A model generated the notes under the pieces. That model did no database searches and was not told where the DNA came from. It saw only the letters and a program-made list of their open reading frames with translations. Shown piece after piece: positions 3,786 to 54,149 of a stretch of 64,000 nucleotides of DNA; within the stretch, counting starts at the first letter, position 1, and each line of letters begins with the position of its first letter. This stretch comes from Alphaproteobacteria bacterium (lineage in GTDB: Bacteria > Pseudomonadota > Alphaproteobacteria > UBA6615), in NCBI GenBank assembly GCA_021774575.1, contig JAJFIX010000045.1:142561-206560 (forward strand). The letters are read 5' to 3'. The translations under genes were made by a program, and so were the position numbers.

Positions 3786-4256
3786 TTAGGCCGCTTCTTC
3801 GCACATTGACGGGTCGGATAGGACTAAATCCTCGACCAAATTAAGTAATTGCGACGGCAGGAACGGTTTTGACAGCACTCTATCGGCGCCGAGGCTTTTC
3901 GCCATTTCCAGGAACGAGAGATTTCCAGTCCGTCCACCGCCCGACATGGCGACAATCTTTACGTCATTGCATAAACGGCGCAATTCCAAGATCGTCTCTA
4001 TACCCTCTTTTTCCGGCATCATAATATCGGTCACAACGATGTCGGGTAGAGCCCTTTCAAAAACCTTCAGGCCATCCACACCATTGCACGCAGACTCAAC
4101 ATCATACCCGTTCTCGGCCAAAATATCGCAGACAGTCGCACGCATTTCCTCATTATCCTCAACGACCAAGGCTTTTAACCGCTGCTCGGTCTCCGATTTT
4201 TCATATTCGGACCGGAGGATTTCAGTACCATCCTCGACCCTGAAATAGTTCGCCAT
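3786..4256 (-). CDS. Single-domain response regulator (CheY-like receiver) with a roughly 30-aa N-terminal extension
   Basis: REC motifs are present (VVEDNEEM, VVTDIMMPEKEG, SKPF). I chose the start at MANYF because GGGAGGG lies 5 bp upstream. The longer ORF-track start at 4274 lacks an RBS. Confidence 0.8.
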   Translation of the reverse strand: MANYFRVEDGTEILRSEYEKSETEQRLKALVVEDNEEMRATVCDILAENGYDVESACNGVDGLKVFERALPDIVVTDIMMPEKEGIETILELRRLCNDVKIVAMSGGGRTGNLSFLEMAKSLGADRVLSKPFLPSQLLNLVEDLVLSDPSMCEEAA

Positions 4257-4634
4257 AAAACCCTCCCGTGGCAAATTTTACCTGATTTTGCGTAGACGAC
4301 GGAAGCGCGGTATCGGCACCAAATTTTGGATTGAAATACTGATACCTTAAATACCTTAAAAAACATTACATAAAAATTACCAAAACTTTATGCGGTGTGT
4401 ATTTGCGAAATATCAAGATTTGATAAAAGTTTTTAACAATTGAACAATATTTCCCCTCGGCGTCGGACGCCCAATTGACCAAAGGGTCTTTGCTAATTCC
4501 GACACCCGTTAATAAATCGGTAATCACTTTAGACATATTTTAAAATATGGATAGCACCATTTATATAGTCTCTTTGTATTGTCTTAGGATCCTTTAACGG
4601 CAATTTCGCTCGATATTTTAGGAACGCATCGCCA

Positions 4635-5834
4635 ATGAACGTCCACAAAGATAATAAATTGTTATCGGAAATCGCTCAGCCCTGGAGTTCGGTGCAGAAG
4701 TTTTCAGATGCACTACTCGGGCTGAATGTTGGCGTCGCCCTGTGGGATGCCGATGATCTGTTGGTTAAATGCAATGACTATTACCGGAATGCCCATCCCT
4801 TCGCCGCGGAGCATTTGCTGTCTGGCTCACGTTACGAGGATTTCATCCGCAGTGTTGCCAAGAATGCCTGCGTGCCTGAGGCCGCCGGACGAGAAGAGGC
4901 TTGGATCGCAGATCGTATGAAAACCCACAGAATTGCCGGAAGCATTACCGAGCAAGCGCATGGAACCAAATGGTACGAAGTCCGCAAACAGTTACTTCCC
5001 GACGGAAGTATGATCACCCTCTTTTTCGATATTACCGAACGCAAGAGAGTAGAGGAGCAGCTAGAGGCAACGCTGCAAAACCTTAAACGGTCGAACGAAG
5101 AGCTTGAGCGCTTCGCCTATGTCGCGTCCCACGACCTTCAAGAACCGCTGCGCAAAATCCAAATGTTTGGCGACCGGTTACAAAAAGATCTCGGCAGTGA
5201 GTCCTCCCAAAGCGCCGTGGAATATGTCGGCCGAATGAGGAACGCTTCGGCGCGCATGCAAGTGTTGATTAATGATCTTCTCTCTTTCTCCCGGCTCAAC
5301 ACGAACCAACAATCTTTCGAGCTTGTCGATCTCGATCAAATCGCCGCTGATGTGATTGCAAATTTGGAAGTTACCTTGGCCGAAACTGGTGCGACCGTCG
5401 ACCTGGGTCCTTTACCAGTTCTCTATGCCAATCCAACTCACATGTCGCGCCTGCTTCAAAACCTCATAGCGAATGCGATCAAATTTCATAAACCGGATCA
5501 AAAGCCGGTGGTAACAATACGTGGATCCAGCGCCGCCAACACCCAACCCCAAGGGCAAAATTTCACCAACTCCGAAATCTGCGAAATTACTGTCGCAGAC
5601 AATGGCATTGGATTTGAACCGGAATATAGCCACAAAATTTTTGAATTATTTCAGCGACTTCACGGTAGAAGCGAATTTGCGGGAACAGGACTCGGGCTGG
5701 CAATTTGCCGCCGCATTGTCGAGGCCCATAATGGCACAATTTCCGCTACAGGAATTCCTGGCAAAGGCGCGATATTTAAAATCCTCTTGCCCCTTCAACA
5801 ATCCCAGCAGGTAGAATTCGATGACGCAGCATAG
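4635..5834 (+). CDS. Cytoplasmic PAS-domain sensor histidine kinase with a bacteriophytochrome-type H-box
   Basis: No TM segment. N-terminal PAS-like region. HisKA signature ASHDLQEPLRKI. HATPase_c G-boxes (DNGIGF, GTGLGLAI). Confidence 0.85.
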   Translation: MNVHKDNKLLSEIAQPWSSVQKFSDALLGLNVGVALWDADDLLVKCNDYYRNAHPFAAEHLLSGSRYEDFIRSVAKNACVPEAAGREEAWIADRMKTHRIAGSITEQAHGTKWYEVRKQLLPDGSMITLFFDITERKRVEEQLEATLQNLKRSNEELERFAYVASHDLQEPLRKIQMFGDRLQKDLGSESSQSAVEYVGRMRNASARMQVLINDLLSFSRLNTNQQSFELVDLDQIAADVIANLEVTLAETGATVDLGPLPVLYANPTHMSRLLQNLIANAIKFHKPDQKPVVTIRGSSAANTQPQGQNFTNSEICEITVADNGIGFEPEYSHKIFELFQRLHGRSEFAGTGLGLAICRRIVEAHNGTISATGIPGKGAIFKILLPLQQSQQVEFDDAA

Positions 5835-6288
5835 CGGGATCAAAAACCATACAATAACCATCGTAATGGCCGATGACGATTGCGATGACAGAATGTTAAC
5901 GCGTGAGGCCCTAAACGACAGCAATCTTCTAAATGGATTTGATGAAGTCGAAGATGGCCAGGAACTTATGGATTATTTGCGCCGGACCGGTTCCTACAAG
6001 AATCTTGCCGGAACACCGCTGCCCGGGCTTATTTTGCTCGACCTAAATATGCCGCGCAAAGATGGGCGCGAGGCCTTAAGTGAAATTCGAGCCGATCCGG
6101 ATTTACGGAAAATTCCGGTTGTTGTTTTAACAACGTCCAAGGCGGAGGAAGATATTGCGCGAACTTATGATCTCGGCGTGAACTCTTTCATTGTTAAGCC
6201 AGTCTCGTTTGATGCCCTAACAAAGACAATGCGTGCATTCACCCAATATTGGGCAGAAGTCGTCGAACTTCCTAGACTTAGTGCCTAA
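5821..6288 (+). CDS. Single-domain response regulator (Rcp-like receiver)
   Basis: 155 aa; acidic pocket MADDDCDD, phospho-acceptor context LLDLNMPRKDG, and T/K motifs. Overlaps the upstream kinase by 14 bp. Confidence 0.85.
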   Translation: MTQHSGIKNHTITIVMADDDCDDRMLTREALNDSNLLNGFDEVEDGQELMDYLRRTGSYKNLAGTPLPGLILLDLNMPRKDGREALSEIRADPDLRKIPVVVLTTSKAEEDIARTYDLGVNSFIVKPVSFDALTKTMRAFTQYWAEVVELPRLSA

Positions 6289-6298
6289 GGAGCAAAGA

Positions 6299-7966
6299 AT
6301 GTCGAAGCCGGTACATGTTCTGTTAGTCGAAGACGACGAGGACGATTACATCCTGACCAAGGGCATGTTGATGGACTCACCCATTCGGCGATTTGAGATC
6401 AAATGGGTCGCTGATTACGACGAAGCCGTCCAGGTGATAAAATCGGCGAAATTCGACCTCTATCTGATCGATTATCGTCTTGGCAGAAAAGACGGGCTAG
6501 ACTTGGTGCGCGAAACAATCGCAGCCGGGTGCACGGCTCCTATAATTTTGCTAACGGGCCTGGATAATCGAGATATTGACGTCGAAGCAATGGAGGCCGG
6601 CGCCGCCGATTACCTTGTTAAGGGCCAAATGTCGCCGCTCATTCTGGAGCGCTCCATTCGATATGCGCTTGCTCGCCAGAATCACTTGGCAACAGAGCGA
6701 AAATCTAAGGAGATGCTCGAAAAAGCAAATAAACGCCTCGCCGAGCTTTACGAAAAAGCGCATCAGTCCGTCGATAACGTCTCCCACGAATTCCGGACGC
6801 CGCTCACCGTAGTCAAAGAATATAGCTCGATTTTACGCGACGGGCTGGGTGGCGAGATAAACGAAAAACAAAGGGAATTTCTGACAATCATCCTCGACAG
6901 GGTCGACGACTTGACCTTCCTGGTAGATGACATGCTCGACATCAGCAAACTCGAGGCCGATTTACTTTGCATTTATCGTCGGCGCACGCGCTTAAGCGAC
7001 GTTATCGACCGAATTCGCCCTATTCTTGAACGCAAGGCATTGGCCAATAACGGCAAACTAAAAATTGAAATTGACGACCCCGAACCATTCATTTATTGCG
7101 ATGGCGAAAAAATCGGTCGGGTCCTCATTAACCTCGCGGTCAATGCATATAAATTTTCAGGCGAGGGCGGCGTTGTCTCGATCATCGCCAAAGTCGACCG
7201 GGAAAGATCCGATCTGTGCGTTTCTGTTAGCGACAATGGCCCAGGTATTTCGCCAGAACAACTCCAACCCATATTTGACCGGTTCCAACAAGGAGATAGC
7301 CAGACCCGAAGTGCGACAAAGGGCTTTGGGCTTGGGTTGAATATTGCCAAAGAATTAGTCGAATTAAATTACGGCAATATTTCCGTATCTAGCGAAGTCG
7401 GAAACGGCAGTTGCTTTAGCTTCACTGTGCCCATTTTCGACCCGCTAACGGTTTTTGAACGCTATACCAGCGGCCTGTTACTGTCGGGCAACGGTTCTGC
7501 CGCTATCTCTCTAATTTCCGTAGGATTGGAACCAGGTGCGGATTTGGCGGGTGTCGAGGAGATAGAGCAAATCTTGCAAGTCCAATTGCGGCGGCACGAT
7601 TTACTCTTTGAGACGGGACCGAGCAAATGGGTCCTATGCTCAGCAGCGGACAATTCCGGCCCAGACCTTGTAATCGAAAAAATTTCAGAAGCCATAACAC
7701 AGGCTAATTCGTTCCTTCCCGAAGATGAATTGCCCCCTGTGTCGCTCAACATCATTGGGACATGGAAAGTACCAGGCGATATCGCCGGATTGTTTGCCCG
7801 ATTTAATCAAATTCGCGCTGCCGACGCCGGGAATAACAGCCATAACACGCACACGGAATTTGTGAATACCGCAACGTCAGACCTGCCGATTCCGTCGTTA
7901 CAGATTGAATTAGCTGGTAGCGAAAATGGACCAACACCAAATATAGGCGGCGAAATTGGAAGATAA
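6299..7966 (+). CDS. Response regulator-histidine kinase hybrid (REC-HisKA-HATPase) with an uncharacterised 180-aa C-terminal domain
   Basis: N-terminal REC (LLVEDDEDD, LIDYRLGRKDG), H-box SHEFRTPLT, and HATPase G-boxes (DNGPGIS, GFGLGLNI). The C-terminal 180 aa match no motif I recognise. AAGGAG precedes the 6299 ATG. The ORF-track start at 6233 is upstream of the stop of the previous gene. Confidence 0.85.
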   Translation: MSKPVHVLLVEDDEDDYILTKGMLMDSPIRRFEIKWVADYDEAVQVIKSAKFDLYLIDYRLGRKDGLDLVRETIAAGCTAPIILLTGLDNRDIDVEAMEAGAADYLVKGQMSPLILERSIRYALARQNHLATERKSKEMLEKANKRLAELYEKAHQSVDNVSHEFRTPLTVVKEYSSILRDGLGGEINEKQREFLTIILDRVDDLTFLVDDMLDISKLEADLLCIYRRRTRLSDVIDRIRPILERKALANNGKLKIEIDDPEPFIYCDGEKIGRVLINLAVNAYKFSGEGGVVSIIAKVDRERSDLCVSVSDNGPGISPEQLQPIFDRFQQGDSQTRSATKGFGLGLNIAKELVELNYGNISVSSEVGNGSCFSFTVPIFDPLTVFERYTSGLLLSGNGSAAISLISVGLEPGADLAGVEEIEQILQVQLRRHDLLFETGPSKWVLCSAADNSGPDLVIEKISEAITQANSFLPEDELPPVSLNIIGTWKVPGDIAGLFARFNQIRAADAGNNSHNTHTEFVNTATSDLPIPSLQIELAGSENGPTPNIGGEIGR

Positions 7967-8372
7967 ACCGACCGTCGTCGTCATTGACGATGACCTTCAC
8001 ATTACCGAGGCCTTGAGCCTCCGGCTGACTATGGCCGGGTGTAATGTACGAACCGCCGACAACGGCTATGCTGGCCTCGCCCTGATCAGCGAATGCAACC
8101 CGGATGCTGTTGTGCTCGACTTATCTATGCCTCAGATGGACGGAATAACAGTATTGACCAGTCTAAACGATAGCGGCCTCAACGAGGTCATCCCAGTCGT
8201 AGTTCTTACAGCTAGAGTCTCTGACAAGGTCAAACGAAGAGTAATGGAACTTGGCGCATATGGCTTCATCCAGAAACCTTATGACGCCGAATATTTGGTG
8301 ACAACATTGCAATCGGCAATTAGCAGGGGCCATCAGGATATGTCGCCAATGTCATTCACAGCACGGGGATAG
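7956..8372 (+). CDS. Single-domain response regulator
   Basis: 138 aa; VVVIDDD, VVLDLSMPQMDG, KPY. Apparent TTG start overlapping the hybrid kinase stop, so the start is uncertain. Confidence 0.75.
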   Translation: MEDKPTVVVIDDDLHITEALSLRLTMAGCNVRTADNGYAGLALISECNPDAVVLDLSMPQMDGITVLTSLNDSGLNEVIPVVVLTARVSDKVKRRVMELGAYGFIQKPYDAEYLVTTLQSAISRGHQDMSPMSFTARG

Positions 8373-8376
8373 CGTT

Positions 8377-9315
8377 ATGCCTGATCAAAAAACTGTTTTC
8401 ATTGCCGCGCACGATCCGCAATTTCTGCAACAAATTACCAAGCGCTGCGCAGGTCTTGGTCTGGACGTGCACTCGGCGTCAGACGGCATGGATGCGTTAT
8501 GGCAAATATTGAACGGTCAATTTGGATTGCTCATTCTCGATTGCGATATGCCGGGCACGGATTGGTTTGACCTTGCGGAAAAATTGAAGATAAAAAGTAG
8601 TCAAAAACCGGTTTCCCAACCGATTCCCAAACCAATTCCCATCGTCGCCCTTGGTCAAGATTCCGAGCAAGACCATGAAGAGCGCTGGGCTGCTTTAAAC
8701 GCCTATTATTGCCATAAGGGCCTTGATACCTGGGCCAATTTGCGATCCATTATTTCCAAAGAATTCGACCTTCAAACACCCGGCTCGTGCATAATCGACA
8801 CGGTTCCTGTACTCGAGACCGCCCCTGTTCGACCGCCTAAAATTCTCGTCGTCGATGACGACCTCCGAATCACGGCTGTGATGAAATATCGGCTTGAGGC
8901 ATTTGGCCTGACGGTGTTTCGGGCCAAAGACGCCACCGAAGGCGCGGCAATGGCGGTAAAGGAACTTCCAGACCTCATTATCACCGACTACAATATGCCG
9001 GGAGGTAGTTCCGGCGAAAATATGGTCTTTACTCTGAAGAGAATTGAGACAACCAAGAACATCCCGGTCATTGTCGTCACGGGCCAAAATATGGACGGGC
9101 GAACCGACTTTGTGCTGCGCCGTGAAATGTTAGGCAGGGGCGGGGCGCAGGCCTACCTGGAAAAACCATATGATTTTGACCAACTGGTCGCTGAAATACG
9201 AAAATTGATCCGTATTCCGGAAAAAACCGACGCCCCTGTAGCTCCCCAGTCAAAGGCGAGCACACAGAAAGAAGCGCATGGTTCGCCAGCAACGCTGTTA
9301 GCTGTCGGCAACTGA
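8377..9315 (+). CDS. Tandem-receiver protein (REC-linker-REC) with no output domain
   Basis: 312 aa. The C-terminal REC is canonical (ILVVDDD, IITDYNMPGG, KPY). The N-terminal REC-like domain is divergent (ILDCDMPGTD). The linker is Pro-rich. Confidence 0.75.
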   Translation: MPDQKTVFIAAHDPQFLQQITKRCAGLGLDVHSASDGMDALWQILNGQFGLLILDCDMPGTDWFDLAEKLKIKSSQKPVSQPIPKPIPIVALGQDSEQDHEERWAALNAYYCHKGLDTWANLRSIISKEFDLQTPGSCIIDTVPVLETAPVRPPKILVVDDDLRITAVMKYRLEAFGLTVFRAKDATEGAAMAVKELPDLIITDYNMPGGSSGENMVFTLKRIETTKNIPVIVVTGQNMDGRTDFVLRREMLGRGGAQAYLEKPYDFDQLVAEIRKLIRIPEKTDAPVAPQSKASTQKEAHGSPATLLAVGN

Positions 9316-9393
9316 CTTAGGGGAAATATTCCATCTGAGAAGACGGCGAAATTATATTTTCGGCGAGCGGCCGGATCGAATAATCCTTCGCCC

Positions 9394-9906
9394 TTATTCG
9401 TATTGGATCAATACCGCGAGGACGCCAGAGTAGTTGCCCGCAGGCTGGCCGGAGCCTAGATTGAGTGTGGCGCCAATCCTAATAGCGTATTGAAAATCGG
9501 CCGAATCTATTATGCCGTGGGATAGAGAAAAATTCTCCGCCGTTAAACTGTCATTTCCCGACCATAGGACCACCATTTGCACCGGTAATTTTATTTGGTA
9601 CCTGCTGTAGCCGCCGATCGAGCCAAACATTGCTGGTCGACCGCCGGCAATTTCACTGACACTGCCAGAACTATGAATTTTCGCGTCGGCGCCGATCGTC
9701 AGCGTTCCGCCTCCCACGCCGGAAACAATATGATTAACGCTGAGATGCTGTAGGGCGACGACTGACGTCGTTTCGAAAACTTGGACCGTTGCCGTGCCCG
9801 TTGCAGTCGCACCCGCCCAAACGGAAGCAATACTCGCATGAACACACACGGCGGCAATGATTGCGCCAAGCTGAAGCTTACCCCGTATTTTCCTGCAGAA
9901 CACCAT
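9394..9906 (-). CDS. Secreted beta-rich protein, DUF4402-like (SCPU/Csu-pilin-like fold family)
   Basis: 170 aa with a signal peptide. Gly/Thr/Ser-rich with a C-terminal ...GATLNLGSGQPAGNYSGVLAVLIQYE motif resembling DUF4402. No adjacent chaperone or usher. Confidence 0.45.
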   Translation of the reverse strand: MVFCRKIRGKLQLGAIIAAVCVHASIASVWAGATATGTATVQVFETTSVVALQHLSVNHIVSGVGGGTLTIGADAKIHSSGSVSEIAGGRPAMFGSIGGYSRYQIKLPVQMVVLWSGNDSLTAENFSLSHGIIDSADFQYAIRIGATLNLGSGQPAGNYSGVLAVLIQYE

Positions 9907-10061
9907 CGCAAATATATTTGGCCTTCAACAATTTCTGGGCGGAAAGAGCTCGAAAATGCTTATATGGCACCGTTACGATATCATGGCCTTGTGTGAGCAC
10001 TTTCGTTCAACTGTTAAAATTTATCTAACAGAAATTTAAGAGATCAGGCTTGAGCTAAATA

Positions 10062-13000
10062 TTACTCGTGCGGCCCCAGCCTCGCCCGAATTCGCTTTGC
10101 CAATTCCGCCTTACTATAGGGCTTACGCAATAGGTCTCCCACAAGTTCAGCGCGAAACGTCGAATCACCTAATTCTTGCTGAGACCAATCCGCAGCAAAG
10201 CCCGATGTGAGCAATATTTTTATATCCGGACGCGCCCTATTTGTGTCCATTGCAAGACGAAACCCATCGATTCCGCTCGGCATGACGATATCGGTAAATA
10301 ATAAATCAATTTTTTCCGGCCCACCAATAATCTCAAGGGCTTGCTTACCATCGCTTGCCGCAAGCGTGTCATACCCCAACTCAGTCAAATGCGAGACGGC
10401 AATATCGAGTAGATCCTCTTCATCTTCGACGACAAGGATAACCTCACTACCTTGAGGCAGCACCTCTTCGTTTTTACTCTCGATCTCCGCCTCATCCGAG
10501 AGCCCGATTGCTCGGGGCAAAAAGAGTCGAAACACCGTGCCTTTCTCGAGTTCGGACTCCAACTCAATATGACCGCCGGAACGTTCGACAAACCCATACA
10601 CCATACTAAGGCCTAGGCCAGTTCCTTTACCTCTCGGCTTCGTCGTGAAAAATGGGTCAAATATACGCTCGCGGAGTTCTTCGGCTATGCCCGTACCCGT
10701 ATCGGATACCGAGACCATGACAAATTCTCCGGGCCGACTTCCTGGATGACGTTTTACATATTCCTGGTCCAGCACTTTATTGGCAGTCAAGAGTTTCAGC
10801 GTGCCGCCATCAGGCATAGCATCGCGGGCATTTAATGTAAGATTGACGATTACGTCATCAAAATCCCCCGGATCAAAATCGGCATTCCATAAATCTTGGG
10901 ATAGCTGAGTAATCACCGCAATCCCAGAGTTTCCGGATTTAGAAATCATTTCTCTAAGATCGAGCAAGCATTTGTTCGCCGATGAAATCTGTTTTCCAGA
11001 GGAGGTAACACGCGAAAAGCTCAGCAGTCGCTCGGTAAGCGCGGCACCACGATTAACCCCCCGAAGTGCGGTCTCAATATGTTTCATCGCCACCTGATCT
11101 TCGGATCTAATCACTTTTAACAATTCCAAATTTCCCATGACGATACTCAAAATATTATTGAAATCATGGGCAATCCCACTCCCCATTTCACCGACCGCCT
11201 GCATTTTTTGCGCATGGTATAGCTGTTCGTCATGGGCCCTTTCGTCGGTTATATCGTGCAAAACACCAGTGGCACGAGTTGCTTTTCCGTCTTCGTCACG
11301 CAAGCATTTTGCTTGGGTTTGAAATAGACGGTAACTACCATCTTTTTTCCGCAATCGATATTCGCACGACCATGTGTTCTCACCTCCGTCGAGAAAGGCT
11401 TCAAATTCTTTGATAATGCGAGGACGTTCTTCAGGGTGCAAATGCGCCCTTAACGTATCTTGGCTGGAGCTAAGTTCACCAATGTCATAGCCCAGCATTT
11501 CGCCAAATCTCTCGGAGAAAAACATCTGCTTTCTCGCGACTTCTAAATCCCAGACCGCGTCCGAAATGGCACCCGTCGCCAACCGGTACCGTTCCTCATT
11601 TTCCTGCAGGGCGGTGGCAATTTTTCTCTGCTGTGTAATATCGGTTGAAATGGTTCCGACATATTGGATATTGCCATGCGCATCATGTATCGGAAATTTT
11701 GTCGCCTGAATTGCAATTTCCTCACCTTCGTTTTGCCACGATATGACACGCATCATATCTACCCCGGTGCGAAAAACTTGCTCATCAAAACCGGCCGATG
11801 CTGTGGCTAAAGGATGCTCGGAAACATTGCGCGGATTTTCCCAGAGCGCTTCATTCAAACCAATGCCCAGACGCTCTCTCGCAACGGCGTTGGCGATTTT
11901 CAAATCACCCTTTCGGTCTTTTACACTGATGCCGGTCGGCGCATTATCCAGGATTGCAGCCAGAAGTCCCTCACTTTCCTGGCGCGCGAATTCGGCTTCT
12001 TTCAACTCCGTAACATCGCGCCCTGTTGACTGATATTCCGCAATTTCTCCATTTGCCCCGGGAATTGCCGTAACCAGCCATTGATACGCTCGCTTCTCTC
12101 CATCCGCGCGAGTCAATACGCCGTGAAAAGTTATCGGTTCTGAGCCCGGCTTAATCTGCGCAATACTCGCCATAAATCTTTCCCGATCGGCCGGTTCCAT
12201 TCTCTGGCCGAACGGTGTGCCAACCAGTTCATCGAAAGATTTTTGATAGACCCGCTGATAGGCCAAATTGACGAAGCTGATGCTTTCGTCGGGCCACCAG
12301 CGGCTTACGGCCTCCTGCTGGCTATCGACAACGGCACGATAGCGCCCATCACTTTTTTCCAGGGCGCCAGTCGTTTTCATATGTTCCGCTATTTCGGCCG
12401 TAAGCGCCTCCTTACTCGCTCGCTCTGAAATTACTCTGTTAACGGTTGACGCAAATAGAAAAGCAAGGGCGATGCCAAGCACTGCGAAAAGGTTTCGGGC
12501 TACGCCCGTGTTCTCAACACCATGTTCAAGGGCTAAGGCTTGCCAAAAAACAAACGTAATAGTCAGAATTGCCAGGGCAGAAGATATGCCAAGCCAATGC
12601 GGAAATCGCACCAAATTATGCCGCGCTGTTTGCCAGGCAAGAGCCAACAATCCGACGCCCAAAGCAACAAAGCCCAAGGACGTATGCAATGCCATGCGAG
12701 TGAATCGCCCCCAGCCATATGCCCCTTCGAGCCCGACTACATAGCCGAGTGTGGCAACAGTTCCTAGGCCCAGAACTGCCGATCCAATTAATCCAAGGAG
12801 TAGTCCGTCGCCGCGACCTTTATCTATTTTCGATAATAGAATTGCGGCGGCAACAAGCATGAACGATAGGGCGGTATTTGGCGCCATTCGGCCCGGATGC
12901 GAGGTTTGCACGGTTACATAGTGCTGCATCAGAAACTGATCAATGCCCAGGTCGATACTAAAAACATACTGAGATATGGTTAGAAGCCCGAGCGCCATTA

Positions 13001-13247
13001 CGGTCACCGCAAGACCTGTTGCCAGTCGATCTTGCGCAATGACTAAAGCAGTCAGCGCCAGCCCACTCAATACAAATCCAAGAGCCGTATTGTATTGCAT
13101 AGGCACGAGGGCAGGGCTCAATTGAACGAGCAAAACAGAATGGGTGTGCCAGCCAATAAATGCCACAAAGCCCAAAAACGCTGCCATTCCTCCGGCAACG
13201 AAACCAAGAATTCTGTATTTTTCAGTCGAGCAATTATTAAATCTCAT
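10062..13247 (-). CDS. Hybrid sensor histidine kinase: polytopic membrane sensor domain, multiple PAS, HisKA, HATPase, C-terminal REC
   Basis: 1061 aa with about 8 predicted TM helices at the N-terminus. H-box [21 protein letters not shown]-boxes, and a C-terminal receiver ([24 protein letters not shown]). Confidence 0.9.
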
Positions 13248-13312
13248 GGACCCAAAAATCTATTATCCAGAAAAGACCAAATGAGTACGTACGCCCGCCT
13301 ATTTTGCCCCTT

Positions 13313-15934
13313 TCACCCTTCCTTAATGGCTTCGGTGTCCAAAGCCTGCCTCACTTGGATTGCCAGCTCGCCTCGACTATAGGGCTTGTGTAATAAATTA
13401 CCGGATAGGTTTGCACGAAATTCCGATTCGCCATGTTCACTTTCAGCCGGAGAAACGGCAAAGCCCGATGTGAGCAATATTTTTATATCTGGTCTTATTT
13501 TTTTCGCATTCTCCGCCAACTGAAAACCGTCGACTCCATTGGGCATTACGACATCGCTAAACAGCAAATCAATCCCTTGGGGCCCACGAATTATTTCAAG
13601 CGCCCGCGCCCCTTCATGCGCAATCAAGGTCCGATAGCCGAGCCCTTCCAAATGAGAGACAGCAACGCTAGCCAAATCTGCCTCGTCGTCAACGACCAAA
13701 ACCGTTTCGGTCCCTTGGGGCAAATTTTTGGCCTCCAACTTCCCCCATACCGCAGACTCTCCCACACCGATCGCCCGAGGCAAATAGAGACGAAACGTCG
13801 TCCCTCTTCCCGGTTCGGAATATACTTTTATGTGACCGCCGGATTGTTCCACAAAGCCATAGGTCATGCTGAGACCAAGGCCCGTGCCTTTTCCCCGTTC
13901 TTTAGTTGAGAAAAATGGCTCAAATATTCTTTCCTTGACGTCATTTGTCATGCCCATGCCGGTATCGCAAACGGACACCATAACAAATTCCCCGGCACTG
14001 CTTCCTGGGTTTAATTTTGCATAATCTTCGTCCAGCACCTTATTTTCCGTTTCGAAAGTCAAGATGCCACCATCGGGCATCGCATCACGGGCATTTAGGG
14101 CGAGATTGACAATGACGTCACCAAATTCCCCGGGGTCGAATTCAGCAGCCCATAAATCATCGGCAAGTTTATTGGTCACGTTGACACCGACAGTCACAGA
14201 TTTTTCGATCATGTCCTGAAGTTCAATGATGCACTGGTTTGCCGATGTTCTTATTTTCTTCTTTGGTTCAACACGTGAGAACCTGAGCAGGCTTTCGGTC
14301 AGCGCAGCGCCGCGAGAAACGCCCCGTAGAGCCGTATCAATGCGATTCAGCGCCTTCGAATCGTCGCGACAATTTGATTTTAGAAGTTCTAAATTTCCAA
14401 GAACTATACTGAGAATATTATTGAAGTCGTGGGCGATGCCGCCACCCAACTCGCCGACCGCCTGCATTTTTTGTGCATGATGCAATTGTTGCTCATGGGA
14501 TCGTTCATCGGTGATATCTCGCAAAATCCCAGTAATACGTTCTACTTCACCCTTATCGGATCGAACTAGCTGGGTTTTGACCGAAAACAGCCGATATCCA
14601 CCGTCCTTTTTTCGCAAACGATACTCGCGGGTCAAGTAAGCCTGATCACCGGCTAGGAAGGCTTCGAAATGACGAATAATTTCGTCGCGCTCATCTGGAT
14701 GCAGTAGCGACCTCAATGTCTCGGCTTCCGATGGGAGCTCGCCTAAATCGTAGCCAAGCATTTCCCCAAGCCGGTCGGAAATATATGTCTTGCCGTCGGC
14801 TACGGTCCGATCCCAAATCGCATCGGATGATGTTGTGGCTGCGAGTCTGTAGCGTTCCTCGCTTTCTTGAAGGGCCGCCTCGATATTCTTCTGACGGGTA
14901 ATGTCCCGCCCCACACCTTGATACTCAACCGGTGCCCCATTGCCGTCAAAAACAGCAGTGATATTCCACGAAAAATATTGGGCTTCACCGTCTGTCCCAA
15001 AGATCTCTGTTTCCACTGTGAGCGGGCCTGAACCTGATCTCATTTCCCTAATCGAGCGAGATACGGTCACTCGATCCACCGGGTTTACCTGCTGACCGAT
15101 GGGCTTTCCAATGAGTTTTCGGGAGGGCAGGCCATATAATTTTTCATATGAGGTGTTTACAAAACTTAGTGTTTCATCGGGCAGCCAGCGGCATATTATA
15201 TCTGACTGGCTATCGATAACCGCACGATACCTATCCTCGCTTGCGCGCAACCGATTTTCGGCGCCGCTGATCTTGGCCACAACATAGGATAGGATTAGGA
15301 GCCCGATACCGACACCTGCCCAAAACACGAGATTTATGACCAACCGGATATCGGATTGACTATCTTTGCCCCCTGCCTCAAATTCAGCCGCTTTATTTGC
15401 TGCAAATATGATCAGAATATCCATTGCGGCAGATAGATCGGTAATATAAGCCGTTTGCGTCTCAGAATTTAAGGCCTTTGCCGCCAACTCACCTTTTGTG
15501 CGAGCAACTTCGACAATTTCCACATTCTGCGATTCCCAGCTATTAAAAATTTCCACAACATTTTCGACATTCGATATGTCGCCGAGAAACCGCCCCCGAA
15601 CAATATCGATATTGGCAAGAAACTCGGCCTTCGCCATTTGCATATCTCGTATCGCCGCATCAAATTCGTCGTCGTTCCGAGATACGATTGAGCGTTCCAA
15701 ATATATTTGTATATGGGCAATATTAGTGTTGGCTTGCAGCAATGCATTACTGACCGCAAGCGGGTGATCATAGATGCGGGTTGTCAGGTCGGCCAAATTA
15801 TCAATTCGGCGGACTGTCCATATCTGCACGCCTATCGCGATCAGTGCCAGGACCGCAAAGCCAATAACCGCCCCCCGCACAATCGGGTTTATAGAACGGC
15901 GCATCACGAACATATTTCCTTTATCCTCCGTCAA
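13313..15934 (-). CDS. Hybrid sensor histidine kinase: TM, periplasmic helical sensor, TM, PAS x2, HisKA, HATPase, REC (paralog of the upstream kinase)
   Basis: 873 aa with two TM segments flanking a roughly 180-aa periplasmic domain. From the PAS region onward it is about 60% identical to the 10062-13247 kinase. It also shares a 32-bp identical DNA tract with it. Confidence 0.9.
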   Translation of the reverse strand: MTEDKGNMFVMRRSINPIVRGAVIGFAVLALIAIGVQIWTVRRIDNLADLTTRIYDHPLAVSNALLQANTNIAHIQIYLERSIVSRNDDEFDAAIRDMQMAKAEFLANIDIVRGRFLGDISNVENVVEIFNSWESQNVEIVEVARTKGELAAKALNSETQTAYITDLSAAMDILIIFAANKAAEFEAGGKDSQSDIRLVINLVFWAGVGIGLLILSYVVAKISGAENRLRASEDRYRAVIDSQSDIICRWLPDETLSFVNTSYEKLYGLPSRKLIGKPIGQQVNPVDRVTVSRSIREMRSGSGPLTVETEIFGTDGEAQYFSWNITAVFDGNGAPVEYQGVGRDITRQKNIEAALQESEERYRLAATTSSDAIWDRTVADGKTYISDRLGEMLGYDLGELPSEAETLRSLLHPDERDEIIRHFEAFLAGDQAYLTREYRLRKKDGGYRLFSVKTQLVRSDKGEVERITGILRDITDERSHEQQLHHAQKMQAVGELGGGIAHDFNNILSIVLGNLELLKSNCRDDSKALNRIDTALRGVSRGAALTESLLRFSRVEPKKKIRTSANQCIIELQDMIEKSVTVGVNVTNKLADDLWAAEFDPGEFGDVIVNLALNARDAMPDGGILTFETENKVLDEDYAKLNPGSSAGEFVMVSVCDTGMGMTNDVKERIFEPFFSTKERGKGTGLGLSMTYGFVEQSGGHIKVYSEPGRGTTFRLYLPRAIGVGESAVWGKLEAKNLPQGTETVLVVDDEADLASVAVSHLEGLGYRTLIAHEGARALEIIRGPQGIDLLFSDVVMPNGVDGFQLAENAKKIRPDIKILLTSGFAVSPAESEHGESEFRANLSGNLLHKPYSRGELAIQVRQALDTEAIKEG

Positions 15935-16065
15935 AAAAATTGGAGGGAAAATTTACTGTCGCGACCGGTGCGATACGGCCTTGTAAGTTCGAGCCTTGAT
16001 AGCTGGGTTAAGATATTGAGATACGGTTGCGCTGGCAATGGCCGCCCATTACTCATCATCACCGG

Positions 16066-16815
16066 CTATGCAGCTGCTATTCCGCCACCGGGTCCTTGTC
16101 CGACATGAATTCTTCCACCGCCTGCTGGATTGATACCCAAGGGGTCGCGCAACCGATACCCATACCCCCACACAGTTTCAATGTAGTCGTCCCCACCGAG
16201 GTTGTTCGAAAGTTTTTTGCGTAGGTTGCAGATGAACACGTCAATGACAGTCTCATCATGTGATTCGGCCCCCTCATAGAGATGCTGAATGAAGGCCAGC
16301 TTCGCCAAAATTGTCCCGCGCCGCATACTAAGCAATTCAATAATTTTATATTCCGTGGCCGTCAGATGAATGAAACAATCGTCGATTTCGACGGTGCGCG
16401 CTTCCAAATTTACCCGCATCTTGCCGACCTCGACAATCGACGTCGAATGCCCGCGAAACCGGCGAACGAGAGCTTGGATGCGCGCGATAAACTCGCGCTC
16501 ATCAAATGGCTTGGTTAGGCAATCATCCGCGCCAGCATTAAACCCCTCAATTTTAAAACCAATGCCCGACGAATCCGACATTATGAGGATTGGCGTGTCG
16601 TTTTTGACCATCCTCAACTTCTTTAGGAGTTCGTAGCCAGGCATGCCATTCGAACCAAGATCCACAACGATAATGTCATAGTCCTGCAGCTTATTGATTT
16701 CCACATTACTGTCATTCAGCTCGTGCGAATGGCAAATGAACCCAACCGACGTTAACATCGACGGGACAACATTTTCCTTCACCGACCCCTCAAAGAACAG
16801 CAAAGCCCTCATCAA
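16066..16815 (-). CDS. CtrA-family (OmpR-type) response regulator paralog with a degenerate receiver acidic pocket and a Gly-rich C-terminal tail ending AAA
   Basis: 249 aa, collinear with CtrA. Shared blocks include DVFICNLRKKL, IETVWGYGYRLRDP and TATEYKIIELLSMRRGT. The N-terminal LLFFEGS replaces the conserved LLIEDDS. The C-terminus is ...GPGGGIAAA. Confidence 0.75.
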   Translation of the reverse strand: MMRALLFFEGSVKENVVPSMLTSVGFICHSHELNDSNVEINKLQDYDIIVVDLGSNGMPGYELLKKLRMVKNDTPILIMSDSSGIGFKIEGFNAGADDCLTKPFDEREFIARIQALVRRFRGHSTSIVEVGKMRVNLEARTVEIDDCFIHLTATEYKIIELLSMRRGTILAKLAFIQHLYEGAESHDETVIDVFICNLRKKLSNNLGGDDYIETVWGYGYRLRDPLGINPAGGGRIHVGQGPGGGIAAA

Positions 16816-16859
16816 AACCTCCTTTTTCGCCCACAGACCCTCCGTAAGAGTGTGAGCAA

Positions 16860-17199
16860 CGCCCCCCCCAAACTAGAGTAAAACGACTTGCTTGAATGAC
16901 TGTAGCGGGAGAATGTGCATCCAATTTCCTACAAATGTGAAAAAATTATTAAAATTTTTTCCGGCCAATTATCGAAAAGAAATAAACACTCACCATTATT
17001 TAACCATTTGTTTATATTTGTTATTAAAATAAAAATGATATTTTAACTATATAATAACAATTACATTAAAATAAATAATAAAATTTTTTACATTAATACT
17101 ATTGCAATTCTTTTATACGAAAACATCATACACCTTTTGTATTGGTGCAACAGTTAGGTCCTATCCTGATATTGTCGCTAAAGCAGAGGGAATTTTCGG
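16860..17199. other. Extremely AT-rich intergenic island (about 15-20% GC) forming a divergent promoter region
   Basis: Long A/T runs (aaaaaattattaaaatttttt, ttattaaaataaaaatgatattttaac, and others). No ORF. Flanked by about 55% GC coding sequence. Confidence 0.8.
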
Positions 17200-18321
17200 A
17201 TGAAAAATTGGGAAGAGGCCACCTCCAAAATGGACGAAACAAATGCATGTTTCGGCATTCGGAAAATCTTTCCGGCTGGTCTCGGGCTGCTATTTGCCAC
17301 CACAGTTGCATTCGGCGTGGCACATGATACGTCGCTCTCAGTCTCAGTTGCCTCGACAAACATCGATCAGCATTCAACAAGCGGCCTGAATGTTGCAGCG
17401 TTTGCGAATGCCGGCGGCTCAGAAATATTGACACCTTTTAGCGCCGCTCAATTGATTGATTGGCCAAATAACAGCGAACAAATAAGCCATGGCATCAAAA
17501 TTGGGATGATTGACGGAGGCGTCAACAAGAACCATCCGGCGCTACACAACCAGGATATTACGACGCGAGAATTCACAGCAAACGGCGCCACACCAGTCCA
17601 ATTGGACCATGGGACCGCCGTTGCGTCCCTTCTTGTCGGCAACCCAAGCACCGGAGACCTGCGCGGGTTACTACCAAATGCCACCCTATTTGCGGCAAAT
17701 ATTTTTAGCCAAGACCGGAATGGGCGCATTATCGGAGACCCAATGGCTTTTTCGAACGCCATCGATTGGCTTATCGATATGGACGTTTCAGTCATCAATG
17801 TCAGCCTTACCGGCAAAACCAACGGCCATATGGAGCGCGCGATCAACAAAGCAGTGGAGCACGGCATTCTTGTGGTCGCCGCCGCCGGAAACAATCGAGG
17901 CAATAGCGGTCGAGACTATCCCGGCGCCTATCGAAATGTCCTGGCGGCAACCGCGGTTGATGCGGATCTGAATATTTATGCCTATGCAAGTCTTGGCAGT
18001 CACGTTGATTTCGCCGCACCGGGGGTTTCCCTACGAATGGCCTCCAATAGTGGATCGGAAGTATTAAGCGGAACGTCGTTTGCCGCGCCATTTCTCACCG
18101 CCACTGTCGCGCTGTCGTTACGAGACCAGGGCGCGATCAACGCCAGCACCATTCGAACACGGCTTTCAAATACGGCCAGGGACCTCGGTAGGGCCGGGCT
18201 CGACCAAGTTTTTGGGTACGGTCTGCTTGATGCCACCAGCAATGAAGGCTTGGTGGCCCAAGTTGACCGGAGGCCTAGCCGGGTCACCCCGATAGGGGCC
18301 CGCAGGTTAACAGCGAATTAA
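17200..18321 (+). CDS. Subtilisin-like serine protease (peptidase S8), secreted or membrane-anchored
   Basis: 373 aa. Catalytic triad contexts IGMIDGG (Asp), DHGTAVAS (His) and GTSFAAPF (Ser). A hydrophobic segment sits at residues 24-40. RBS GAGGGA. Confidence 0.85.
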   Translation: MKNWEEATSKMDETNACFGIRKIFPAGLGLLFATTVAFGVAHDTSLSVSVASTNIDQHSTSGLNVAAFANAGGSEILTPFSAAQLIDWPNNSEQISHGIKIGMIDGGVNKNHPALHNQDITTREFTANGATPVQLDHGTAVASLLVGNPSTGDLRGLLPNATLFAANIFSQDRNGRIIGDPMAFSNAIDWLIDMDVSVINVSLTGKTNGHMERAINKAVEHGILVVAAAGNNRGNSGRDYPGAYRNVLAATAVDADLNIYAYASLGSHVDFAAPGVSLRMASNSGSEVLSGTSFAAPFLTATVALSLRDQGAINASTIRTRLSNTARDLGRAGLDQVFGYGLLDATSNEGLVAQVDRRPSRVTPIGARRLTAN

Positions 18322-18495
18322 ACGAGGTAAACAACACCAACCTCGATAATTACCCGAATGAATTAGACTATCCCGGTTCTTTCGTAATTTCCCCAAGTAC
18401 TTAGATCGATTAAATCATTGTCGACCATCGCTAGAGGATCAGCCTCGGTGCCTGCGCTTCGACAAATGACGGATTAGCTTGGAAAGGACGAACAA

Positions 18496-19176
18496 TTGCG
18501 TGCTCTCATTATTGAAGACGACATTGCGATGGCACAGAGCATTCGCATGACCCTCGAGTCAGATGGCTTCACCTGCGCCAATACCGATCGCGGGCGGGAC
18601 GGCATCTATATCGCCGCAGCGCAAAAATACGACATCATCGTCCTTGACCTGATGCTACCCGATATCGACGGCTACAAAGTATTATCTTCCCTTAGGGGAA
18701 AGAAAAACTCCACGCCGGTATTGATGCTTTCGGGATTTGATGATGCCGATAAAAAGATTGATGGACTGAAAGCCGGGGCCGACGATTTCCTCGGCAAGCC
18801 TTTCAATGCGAGGGAATTAATCGCCCGCGCGCGCGCGATCATTCGCCGCTCTGAAAGGGCAGCTGATACCGTCGTTAAGACAGGAAAAGTAAGCGTCAAT
18901 TTGACCGCTCATACTGTCGATATTGGCGGTAGGTTGCTGAGATTGGCGAGCAAGGAGTCTAGTCTCCTCGAATTGCTCAGCAAGGATAAGGGGAAAATAG
19001 TTTCCCGAGCGACCATCAGCGACCATCTATACCCTGGCACAAACGGCCCCAACGACCTGAGGATCATTGACGTTTTTGTCAGCAAGCTGCGAAAAAAATT
19101 GTCCCGAGCAACGGACGGTGAGACCCATATCGATACATTGTGGAAGCGCGGCTATGTTCTCCGCGATCCCGTTTAA
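18496..19176 (+). CDS. CtrA-family (OmpR-type) response regulator paralog with an intact receiver
   Basis: 226 aa, collinear with CtrA across both domains (MRALIIEDD, IIVLDLMLPDIDG, KPF, IIDVFVSKLRKKL, WKRGYVLRDP). I estimate about 45% identity to canonical CtrA. Confidence 0.8.
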   Translation: MRALIIEDDIAMAQSIRMTLESDGFTCANTDRGRDGIYIAAAQKYDIIVLDLMLPDIDGYKVLSSLRGKKNSTPVLMLSGFDDADKKIDGLKAGADDFLGKPFNARELIARARAIIRRSERAADTVVKTGKVSVNLTAHTVDIGGRLLRLASKESSLLELLSKDKGKIVSRATISDHLYPGTNGPNDLRIIDVFVSKLRKKLSRATDGETHIDTLWKRGYVLRDPV

Positions 19177-19188
19177 AAGCCAAAACAG

Positions 19189-19914
19189 CTATAATTTGGT
19201 CACCGTCGCAGAGAAAATATAGCCGACCCCGCGAATAGTTTTGATGATTTCAGGGTGCCTGGGATCCGGTTCAATTTTTTTCCTCAATCGACTCACTAGC
19301 CCGTCGATACCGCGATCGAAACCTGCCCATTCACGACCATGGACGTTGTTGAGAAGAGAGTCTCGCGTATGGACCCGCTGTGGCGCATCGGCTAATGCGC
19401 GAAGAAGCTCGAATTCTGCTGTGGTGAGGGGGGTATCCGTACCCTCCGGCGATCGAAGATTTCGAGCCGCCAGATCGAACTGCCAGCCGCAAAACCCCAG
19501 CACGGTTCGCCCTTCTACTCCATGGGGGTTTCCGTTGTGAGAGGTGCCAATTTTTCGACGGCGCAGAACCGCATTGACCCGCGCCACTAATTCGCGGGGA
19601 CGAAACGGCTTCGTTACGTAATCGTCAGCACCAAATTCCAGTCCCAGAACATGGTCGGTCTCGCTCGTTCTACCGGAAACAATAATTATACCGGCGTCAG
19701 ATCGATCACGAATTTCTTTGGCCAAGGCGAGTCCGTTATCGTCTGGCAACGCCAAATCCATCAAGTAAAGGTCGATACCACGCTCTTTTTCAAGGGCGCG
19801 AAATTCCGCCGCATTTTTCGCCGATAAAATACGATGGCCTTCCCCCGCCAAAATACCACTAATGAGCTCACGGACATCCGGGTCATCTTCGGTAATTAGG
19901 ATAGTGGCCTTCAT
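19189..19914 (-). CDS. OmpR/PhoB-family response regulator (REC plus winged-helix), orphan
   Basis: Start chosen at MKATILITEDD, where GGAGAGG lies upstream. Receiver motifs and a C-terminal trans_reg_C (LTTAEFELLRAL, IKTIRGVGYIF). No adjacent cognate kinase. Confidence 0.8.
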   Translation of the reverse strand: MKATILITEDDPDVRELISGILAGEGHRILSAKNAAEFRALEKERGIDLYLMDLALPDDNGLALAKEIRDRSDAGIIIVSGRTSETDHVLGLEFGADDYVTKPFRPRELVARVNAVLRRRKIGTSHNGNPHGVEGRTVLGFCGWQFDLAARNLRSPEGTDTPLTTAEFELLRALADAPQRVHTRDSLLNNVHGREWAGFDRGIDGLVSRLRKKIEPDPRHPEIIKTIRGVGYIFSATVTKL

Positions 19915-20051
19915 GTCCTCTCCGCGCCAATCATGGCGAATTATTCGAACAGTCATTTATCTTACTGATAATTAGTGTTTACTATACCATCGGCATTTTA
20001 GCAAAAATTATTGAAATCTTCGATTGCCCGCGAATGCCTCTCTGCCAAGGC

Positions 20052-20450
20052 TCATTCTCCGTTACCATCAACTGTATCGGCGGCATCGAGTAACTTCCTA
20101 ACAGTCGAGGTTAAACGATCAATTGTGTATGGCTTTGGCAAAAACTCGACACCTGCACCAGAAAGCTTTTGGGTAACCTGCTCGCTATCTGTGTAGCCTG
20201 AGGTGTAAATAACCCTAATATCAGGAATGCGATCGCGCACGACCTGCGCGACATCGATACCGTTCATTCCTCCCGGCAGCATCATGTCCGTTAATAGAAG
20301 ATCAATCTTGGGGGCCCCATCCAGCATCGCAACAGCTGACGGGCCATCCTCCGCCTCGACAACGGAATAGCCAAGTGTGGATAGGACAGTCGCCATATAC
20401 GCCCGGACGTCAGGGTCGTCCTCAACGACAAAGATCGTCTCTCCGGACAT
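20052..20450 (-). CDS. Single-domain response regulator
   Basis: Start chosen at MSGETIFVVEDD, where GAGGAGAGGAAG lies upstream. LLLTDMMLPGGMNG and KPY. Confidence 0.8.
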   Translation of the reverse strand: MSGETIFVVEDDPDVRAYMATVLSTLGYSVVEAEDGPSAVAMLDGAPKIDLLLTDMMLPGGMNGIDVAQVVRDRIPDIRVIYTSGYTDSEQVTQKLSGAGVEFLPKPYTIDRLTSTVRKLLDAADTVDGNGE

Positions 20451-20777
20451 AAACTTCCTCTCCTCGGCAAAACCAAACACTATATATTTTCACTACGTTT
20501 TCACAAAACATCGCCGGGATTCGCAATATCTCATACATAGCGGCACCGGCGTTACAGACCATGAAGGCAGTCACTTAAGACAGGTACAATAGCATAGGCC
20601 AGCTTGCTTCGTCTCAGTGAAGTTTCCAGTGCGCTCTCGGAAAAAGAGAATTCGAATTTGCCTGGAACACACTATCAAGTGCGAGTCGTACCGCATCCAG
20701 CCAAGTCGCGTCGCCTAGGCCTTCTCGCCGGTGGTGATCAGGAGTGTGCATCAATTCTATTCATCTTTCTCGGTTTA

Positions 20778-53132: not shown

Positions 53133-54149
53133 ATGACCGGCATCGCAATTTTTGGCGCGGGGCGTATCGCCAAGGTTCATGCGCAATCGGTAGCCGATAT
53201 CGGCGCCAATTTGGTCGCTGTTTACGATATCGTACCCGAAGCGGCGCAAACCCTCGCGGCCCAATACGGCGCAAAGGCCGCCGGGTCGCCGAATGAGGCC
53301 ATTAGCCATCCCGACGTCGACGCCGTGATCATCGCGGCGTCTTCGGATGTGCATGTCGAATTATGCCTCGAAGTCGTAAAGGCCGGCAAAAGGGTGATGT
53401 GCGAAAAACCGCTGGCACCAAGCTTGAAAGAAGCCCACGCCTGCGTGACCCAGCTGGGCGATAAAGCCGGTGACGTATTTTTGGCCTTCAACCGCCGTTT
53501 CGATCATGGCCATGCGCGGCTGGAATCCGGCGTTCGGTCGGGCGATATCGGCAATCTCGAACAGCTCATCATTACCAGCCGCGACCCCTATCCGCCGCCG
53601 ATGGATTATATACCAAAGTCGGGCGGGCTGTTTCGCGATATGATGGTGCATGATTTTGATATGGCACGCTGGTTGCTTGCCGAAGAACCGATGCGGCTAT
53701 TTGCGCAAGGGGCTTGTGTCGTTGACCCGCAAATCGGCAAGATGGGGGATATCGATAGTGCCGTCGTCACCATGTCGACACCAAGCGGCAAGCAGGCGGT
53801 GATCACCAACTCTCGCCGGGCGACATACGGATACGATCAGCGCATCGAAGCCTTTGGTTCCCGGGGCATGATCATTTCCGATAATCAGCCGGCGACTGGT
53901 GTCAAAACATTCACTGGAGCAGCATATGCTGCTTGCGAACCGATCCCGGAATTTTTCATGGATCGCTACGCCGCCAGCTACCGCAAAGAGATTGAGCGTT
54001 TCATCGACTGCGTTCGCTCAGGTCAAAACGCACCGGTATCAGCCCTGGATGGCCTGCACGCCGCCTATCTAGCCGAGGCCGCGATGGCGTCATTGAAGAG
54101 CGGGCAACCGGTCGAACTTGACGAGAACTGCGACGCTACATGGACGTAG
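53133..54149 (+). CDS. iolG: myo-Inositol 2-dehydrogenase (Gfo/Idh/MocA)
   Basis: 338 aa; IAIFGAGRIAKVH, EKPLA. Context with iolCDEB. Confidence 0.8.
   Translation: MTGIAIFGAGRIAKVHAQSVADIGANLVAVYDIVPEAAQTLAAQYGAKAAGSPNEAISHPDVDAVIIAASSDVHVELCLEVVKAGKRVMCEKPLAPSLKEAHACVTQLGDKAGDVFLAFNRRFDHGHARLESGVRSGDIGNLEQLIITSRDPYPPPMDYIPKSGGLFRDMMVHDFDMARWLLAEEPMRLFAQGACVVDPQIGKMGDIDSAVVTMSTPSGKQAVITNSRRATYGYDQRIEAFGSRGMIISDNQPATGVKTFTGAAYAACEPIPEFFMDRYAASYRKEIERFIDCVRSGQNAPVSALDGLHAAYLAEAAMASLKSGQPVELDENCDATWT

Follow-up and report, generated by a model that had tools for sequence, protein, structure and literature searches.

The locus analysed here raises the question of what function, if any, is served by a short and extremely AT-rich island that occupies the middle of an intergenic gap between two divergently transcribed genes. 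One of these genes encodes a paralogue of the response regulator CtrA (16066-16812, minus strand), and the other encodes an S8 family serine peptidase (17200-18321, plus strand). The window, by which we mean the whole 64-kb stretch of DNA that was analysed, has a mean GC content of 53.3% with a standard deviation (SD) of 6.4 percentage points in 100-bp windows, and the genes on either side of the island have GC contents of 50-54%. On the basis of the ORF map and base composition, the entire gap comprises 384 bp (16816-17199) at 32% GC. Its AT core, 200 bp at 17% GC (16923-17122), is the lowest 200-bp window of the 64-kb sequence and contains a 150-bp segment at 14% GC (16968-17117) and an extreme minimum of 100 bp at 9% GC (16996-17095). 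Expressed as AT content, these values amount to 83% over 200 bp and 91% over 100 bp, compared with 47% for the window. The island has abrupt compositional edges, and the core is located 90-270 bp ahead of the S8 start codon and 110-310 bp ahead of that of the regulator gene. Both start codons are supported by Shine-Dalgarno sequences, AAGGAGG preceding the ATG at 16812 (minus strand) and GAGGGA preceding the ATG at 17200. The original prediction described a 300-bp island with a GC content of approximately 15%. A sharp AT island is indeed present, but its size and depth differ from this description: the interval quoted (16860-17199) has a GC content of 29.1%, and a value of approximately 15% is true for the shorter core segments only. 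The island is smaller and more extreme than first described.

The extremity of the island was evaluated in several ways. Its 100-bp minimum falls short of the window mean by 6.9 SD. Under a binomial model, the probability that 100 bp contain no more than nine G+C is 6e-21 for the composition of the window and still 3e-13 for a typical intergenic GC content of 42%. For comparison, we used 89 other proteobacterial loci (1.12 Mb, from which masked N runs had been removed). The largest 100-bp drop below the locus mean in this set was 0.34, compared with 0.44 for the island, and the lowest absolute 100-bp GC content was 0.18, compared with 0.09. No second copy of the island was detected in the window or in any comparison locus. 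An assembly artefact was ruled out, because the 384-bp gap is present at 100% identity in two independent Logan assemblies from different sequencing runs (SRR15505515 and SRR15505518).

The island is situated in a 17-kb cluster of 14 genes (3786-20480). Twelve of these belong to two-component systems, including genes for single-domain receivers, REC-HK and REC-REC proteins and an OmpR-like regulator, and the others encode the S8 peptidase and a DUF4402 protein. The regulator to the left of the island (P0121, 248 aa) is an OmpR-family response regulator containing the Pfam domains Response_reg and Trans_reg_C. Its best NCBIfam match is the CtrA model, with a score of 264 bits, which is below the cutoff of 350, and it is approximately 50% identical to annotated CtrAs. 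The acidic pocket of its receiver domain is degenerate (FFEGS in place of EDD), with the phospho-acceptor residue D51 and the conserved K101 retained. The protein may be an atypically phosphorylated or phosphorylation-independent regulator. Its C-terminal tail is Gly-rich (GINPAGGGRIHVGQGPGGGIAAA), and no homologue with >54% identity was found among 5.8 billion proteins. A second CtrA paralogue (P0122, 226 aa; 18496-19176, plus strand), identified by Pfam, NCBIfam and alignment, has an intact receiver domain. The CtrA-like recognition helix IDVFICxLRKKL is present in both proteins, and, judged by NCBIfam scores below the cutoff, both are classified as CtrA paralogues, not as genuine CtrA.

To the right of the island, the S8 peptidase (P0001, 373 aa) was identified by its Peptidase_S8 domain (Pfam, E = 1.9e-39). 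Two CckA-like hybrid histidine kinases (10062-13247, 1061 aa, and 13313-15934, 873 aa; both on the minus strand; Pfam and NCBIfam) are encoded downstream of the regulator gene on the same strand, with intergenic gaps of 65-131 bp. No convincing terminator was found between the regulator and kinase genes, and the three genes probably form a leftward operon. Outside the cluster, the window encodes ordinary chromosomal metabolism (sugar ABC transport, the Entner-Doudoroff pathway and inositol catabolism). This part of the window also contains a perfect 12/12 match to the sigma-54 consensus (TGGCACGCTGGTTGCT; 53662-53677, plus strand) at the edge of the divergent gap 53652-54139. This site lies upstream of an inositol-catabolism-like operon (GFO/IDH, PfkB+DUF2090, a TPP enzyme, an IolE-like protein and IolB).

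Five divergent gaps are present in the window. Three of them, all outside the cluster, are ordinary in composition (100-bp minima of 0.43-0.48), one contains a weaker island, and one contains the extreme island described above. The original prediction had named comparable AT islands at every divergent promoter of the genome as the finding that would speak against it; at the divergent promoters of the window, such islands are not common. The weaker island (4275-4634; 36% GC, with a 100-bp minimum of 23% at 4350-4449) corresponds to the remaining divergent gap of this two-component-system cluster. On one side of it is the gene for a single-domain receiver (3786-4274, minus strand), on the other an operon with a PAS_7 histidine kinase (4635-9315), and a direct repeat (ATACCTTAAATACCTTAAA) is found inside it. 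The two islands have no words in common beyond those expected by chance.

The physical consequence of the composition is pronounced. When duplex stability was calculated from the SantaLucia nearest-neighbour energies, no part of the window was less stable than the island at any of the scales tested (z = 5.5-6.6). Stress-induced duplex destabilization (SIDD) was calculated using a simplified single-run version of Benham's model with parameters taken from general knowledge, and a stress-induced opening site was predicted at the 100-bp minimum. At a superhelical density (sigma) of -0.055, the segment 16996-17113 is predicted to open with a probability of about 1, and in a 16-kb domain at sigma -0.035 the island is the sole predicted opening site (probability 0.997). 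The predicted probability of remaining closed at sigma -0.055 is 9e-16 for the island domain and 1e-6 and 8e-3 for other 5-kb domains; because some site opens in any 5-kb domain at this superhelical density, the result is a matter of degree.

Beyond its composition, the island is essentially without internal organisation. It contains no tandem repeats or iterons. The best inverted repeat is 9 bp in length (16939-16961) and was equalled or exceeded in 19% of dinucleotide shuffles, and the short direct and inverted repeats are such as AT-rich sequence yields. A motif scan revealed two sigma-70-like hexamer pairs, ATAACA-18-AATAAT directed towards the regulator gene (16995-17024, minus strand) and TTAACT-18-TAAAAT directed towards the S8 gene (17043-17072, plus strand). 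Because this number equals that expected from shuffled sequences (2 versus 1.8), both pairs are regarded just as candidate promoters. A perfect TATAAT is present at 17050-17055, and the density of -10-like TANNNT hexamers shows no excess over the compositional expectation.

Whereas the position, composition, extremity, low stability, lack of internal organisation, single copy and reproducible assembly of the island are observed, promoter activity, binding of a nucleoid-associated protein, counter-silencing and operon structure at this locus are inferred. The explanation that we favour, with a chance that we put slightly above even, is that the two genes share a bidirectional promoter and regulatory region of which the island forms the core, its AT content favouring melting and the binding of a MucR/H-NS-like protein. 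The narrower claim that the island is a bidirectional promoter zone is considerably more likely than this combined reading, and the specific involvement of MucR is less likely than it. In the leftward direction, the island would serve the putative operon of the CtrA-paralogue regulator and the two CckA-like hybrid kinases; in the rightward direction, it would serve the S8 peptidase gene and possibly the gene for the second CtrA paralogue. The placement and extremity of the island, together with its absence of motif structure, suggest that the element works through composition rather than through a specific motif array. As the easiest-melting DNA for many kilobases, it would be the place at which negative supercoiling, including that generated by divergent transcription, concentrates opening, and both promoters would thereby become topology-sensitive. 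MucR/Ros silencers, which prefer AT-rich tracts dense in T-A steps, could nucleate on the island and hold both operons off until a counter-acting activator relieves the silencing. A candidate for this activator is a local OmpR/CtrA-type regulator acting via TTAACCAT, an octamer that occurs once in the island; counter-silencing based on this lone octamer and the flanking CtrA-like regulators is plausible but unproven. Supercoil-dependent melting and nucleation of an H-NS-like silencer are mutually compatible.

The silencing part of this explanation agrees in several respects with what has been reported for MucR. MucR/Ros proteins favour AT-rich sites with T-A steps that are spaced over tens of base pairs (PMC5881533). 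The recruitment of MucR1 decreases with rising GC content independently of a motif, and the protein bridges AT-rich promoter DNA, as reported for a fragment of 228 bp (PMC9410896). The island contains 30 T-A steps in 201 bp, although their abundance is largely a consequence of its composition. Against the silencer reading, A-tracts, which have been reported to be unfavourable for MucR (PMC5881533), are frequent in the island. In addition, a search of the 64-kb window for mucR/ros or H-NS-like genes gave none. The weaker island at the second divergent gap of the cluster and the AT shift of the cluster and its intergenic DNA, described below, speak for the regulatory reading. The original prediction that such an island is a typical silencing target is reasonable and agrees with the composition, the T-A steps and the location at a divergent promoter in a modestly AT-shifted cluster; it is partly supported, by composition only.

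An alternative is that the island is mainly an array of operators for CtrA-type regulators (genuine CtrA, P0121 or P0122), its AT richness being a by-product of the half-sites. The one notable element is TTAACCAT at 17000-17007 (plus strand), which matches the CtrA half-site octamer of Caulobacter. It is the sole copy in the window, where 1.9 are expected, and its occurrence in the island has a p value of about 0.05 relative to island shuffles in a post hoc test. Three TTAA-N7-TTAA sequences with one mismatch or less are also present (16938, 17000 and 17043), and the recognition helix shared by the two paralogues is of the CtrA type. However, 2.4 such near-boxes are expected from the composition (p = 0.42), and the six TTAA sites in the island compare with 6.9 +/- 2.0 in shuffled sequences. 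The spacings of these sites range from 19 to 51 bp, with none at 11 bp, and the island contains no GANTC site. The several isolated TTAA sites noted in the original prediction are thus real, yet their number is that expected from composition, and a perfect TTAA-N7-TTAA box is absent from the island, as had been stated; the CtrA-site reading hinted at there receives no clear statistical support from these counts. Furthermore, a handful of operator sites would not need 200 bp at 17% GC. We consider an operator array unlikely as the main explanation of the island.

The single perfect TTAA-N7-TTAA in the window (18307-18321; 0.75 expected per window) can also be cited in favour of operators at this locus. 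It overlaps the stop codon of the S8 gene and lies 175 bp upstream of P0122, which suggests CtrA-type control or autoregulation of the P0122 gene.

A further alternative, to which we assign a slightly lower likelihood than to the operator array, is that the island is a functionless scar, either a foreign low-GC fragment or what is left of a small mobile element, that has not yet drifted to the composition of the genome. Its abrupt boundaries, its single copy and its being known from this lineage alone are in line with such an origin. In addition, the surrounding cluster is slightly AT-shifted: its GC content is 0.507, compared with 0.549 in the rest of the window (p = 3e-6), and its GC3 is 0.538, compared with 0.595 (p = 3.5e-5). 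Its intergenic DNA is likewise AT-shifted, and 10 of the 15 non-overlapping 100-bp windows with GC contents of <=36% are located in the cluster. However, the hallmarks of a mobile-element remnant or MITE are not found in the island, which has neither terminal inverted repeats nor a target-site duplication, lacks tandem repeats and occurs as a single copy. No integrase, transposase, other mobility gene or tRNA gene is present near the island, and a search of plasmid and phage collections yielded no match to it except composition-driven ones to Buchnera. Moreover, its exact placement in the promoter zone and the presence of a second island at the other divergent gap of the cluster point to selection.

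The closest relatives of the S8 peptidase are 47-59% identical and are encoded in unrelated gene contexts with ordinary upstream DNA; among the contexts of the six closest homologues, neither a CtrA-like neighbour nor an AT island was found. The protease family therefore does not need such an island. A search of 185,579 species-representative genomes with the S8 protein detected nothing, and a search with an alignment of its ten closest relatives detected relatives of <=45% identity in other contexts and nothing closer. When the S8 upstream region was aligned to those of two paralogues, no common element was found. The peptidase belongs to a small multi-copy subfamily, with three paralogues in the metagenome ERZ26661914 and one further paralogue (P0006) from the same sequencing run as the window. 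A housekeeping enzyme of the window, Edd, likewise has no match above 71% identity, its best named matches being those from Kaistia, Ciceribacter and Kiloniellaceae. The lack of close homologues is therefore explained by an unsampled lineage, not by a foreign locus, and these identities indicate that the source organism is a member of an essentially unsampled alphaproteobacterial lineage. The suggestion that the promoter was horizontally acquired thus retains the AT shift of the cluster, which is slight, but not the mobility genes, tRNA genes or homologue distribution that might accompany it, and the sequence features of the locus point only weakly to acquisition.

A further reading is that the island would be a dedicated switch driven by DNA topology. 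Here, a motif-free melting element of approximately 200 bp would couple both operons via transcription-generated supercoiling, a silencer might or might not take part, and a hairpin in the leader of the S8 mRNA would form a second layer of control as a translational lock. A long hairpin is predicted in this leader (17102-17213, plus strand; minimum free energy, -33.2 kcal/mol; z = -3.3), and its energy was matched in one of 200 shuffles when the single sequence was folded. In the predicted structure, the Shine-Dalgarno sequence (17184-17190) is base-paired to 17133-17140 and the AUG (17200-17202) to 17113-17115, a fold that could be involved in translational control by sequestration of the ribosome-binding site. 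Folding of the leader of the regulator mRNA is unremarkable (z = -0.16). We consider this topology-driven switch improbable, somewhat more so than the scar. If it were true, the island would be a lineage-specific regulatory device of the CckA/CtrA-like phosphorelay and the S8 protease and not a generic silenced promoter.

It is very unlikely that the regulator gene is transcribed from a sigma-54 promoter (TGGGGGGGGCGTTGCT; 16870-16855, minus strand) for which the island provides a flexible or bent spacer that allows looping by an enhancer-binding protein. The candidate site has correctly spaced GG and TTGC elements about 33 nt upstream of the ATG, and the AT-rich tract is found 55-250 bp farther upstream. 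However, just 9 of the 12 consensus positions are matched, a score that is reached or exceeded by 31 sites in the window. None of the genes in the cluster encodes a Sigma54_activat domain, and no IHF consensus is present in the island. Curvature was predicted using three dinucleotide wedge models with parameters from general knowledge; the left edge of the island (16876-16940) ranks in the top 0.2-1% of the window, but curvature is not higher than in dinucleotide shuffles of the island (p = 0.2-0.5), and AA/TT (A-tract) phasing at 10-11 bp was not detected (p = 0.12). A curvature prediction had been proposed as a check of the island, and it reveals nothing above the compositional expectation. 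In these models, the island is easy to melt and flexible, not specifically bent.

The sigma-54-like match includes a run of eight C residues (16862-16869; G8 on the strand of the regulator gene) between the AT core and the regulator start codon. Including this one, the window contains only three C or G runs of at least 7. The length of the run is identical in both assemblies, and strand slippage could occur at this site.

The least likely of all is that the island encodes a small RNA or a small protein or serves as a replication origin or DNA-unwinding element: although its duplex stability is very low, as in a DNA-unwinding element, and mechanical ORFs of 43-46 aa can be read in it, their product is implausible and they lack a ribosome-binding site (in substance, the absence of an ORF had been correctly noted), no Rfam covariance-model match at E <= 1 was obtained in 16000-18500 and no tRNA near the island, and an origin was rejected because the context is one of chromosomal metabolism and there is no DnaA box within 2 kb of the island (11 in the window versus 10.5 expected), no iteron, no turn in cumulative GC skew and no replication gene in the window.

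The bidirectional regulatory region thus remains the explanation that we prefer. If it is correct, the island would represent a very clean natural example of a regulatory element based on composition only, extending over 200 bp without detectable motif architecture. It would then provide a convenient substrate for testing to what extent MucR-type silencers are recruited by AT content alone and also for testing the supercoiling-based coupling of divergent promoters. It would lie at the point from which a duplicated CckA/CtrA-type signalling module and a secreted-type protease are controlled. The island opens no new category and settles no standing question; it is a striking example of a familiar type of element.

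Several known systems can be compared with the island. SIDD sites, as defined by the Benham model, are found at intergenic regions that contain promoters. Like them, the island is the tract of lowest stability between divergent genes and is predicted to open at physiological negative supercoiling, its opening in this case being predicted with a simplified single-run model. The H-NS-bound 'promoter islands' of enterobacteria are AT-rich intergenic tracts with many -10-like hexamers, at which silencer nucleation is relieved by response regulators. The present island is similarly an AT-rich intergenic tract with -10-like hexamers and may also be a nucleation site for a silencer, but it differs from promoter islands in phylum and in silencer family, and its promoter-like hexamers do not exceed the number expected from its composition.

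Another related system is the CtrA/MucR1/2/SciP module of Caulobacter, in which the same promoter is targeted by a CtrA-type activator and by an AT-binding silencer, and MucR1/2 act together with CtrA on G1-phase promoters (PMC4083442). At the locus described here, as far as can be judged from the DNA, the island has genes for CtrA-like regulators on its flanks and a single TTAACCAT in its interior. In contrast to the Caulobacter module, these regulators are paralogues, and the island has neither a full CtrA box nor an enrichment of half-sites.

The silencer part of our explanation is modelled on promoters that are silenced by MucR/Ros proteins, such as the mucR, virB and babR promoters of Brucella (PMC9410896, PMC5881533, PMC10746212) and Puxs1 of Sinorhizobium fredii, which was studied as a 228-bp probe. 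The island differs from them in its richness in A-tracts, a feature reported to be unfavourable (PMC5881533), and in being flanked by regulators and a protease gene in a chromosomal two-component-system cluster and not by clearly foreign DNA. Its AT content of 83-91% lies at or above the upper end of the values quoted for the Puxs1 sub-fragments (54-85% AT; PMC9410896). In other respects the resemblance is close: in both cases, a short AT-rich tract of 200-odd base pairs in a GC-richer alphaproteobacterial genome, dense in T-A steps and without a strict motif, lies upstream of genes for accessory, surface or secreted functions (PMC9410896, PMC5881533, PMC10746212).
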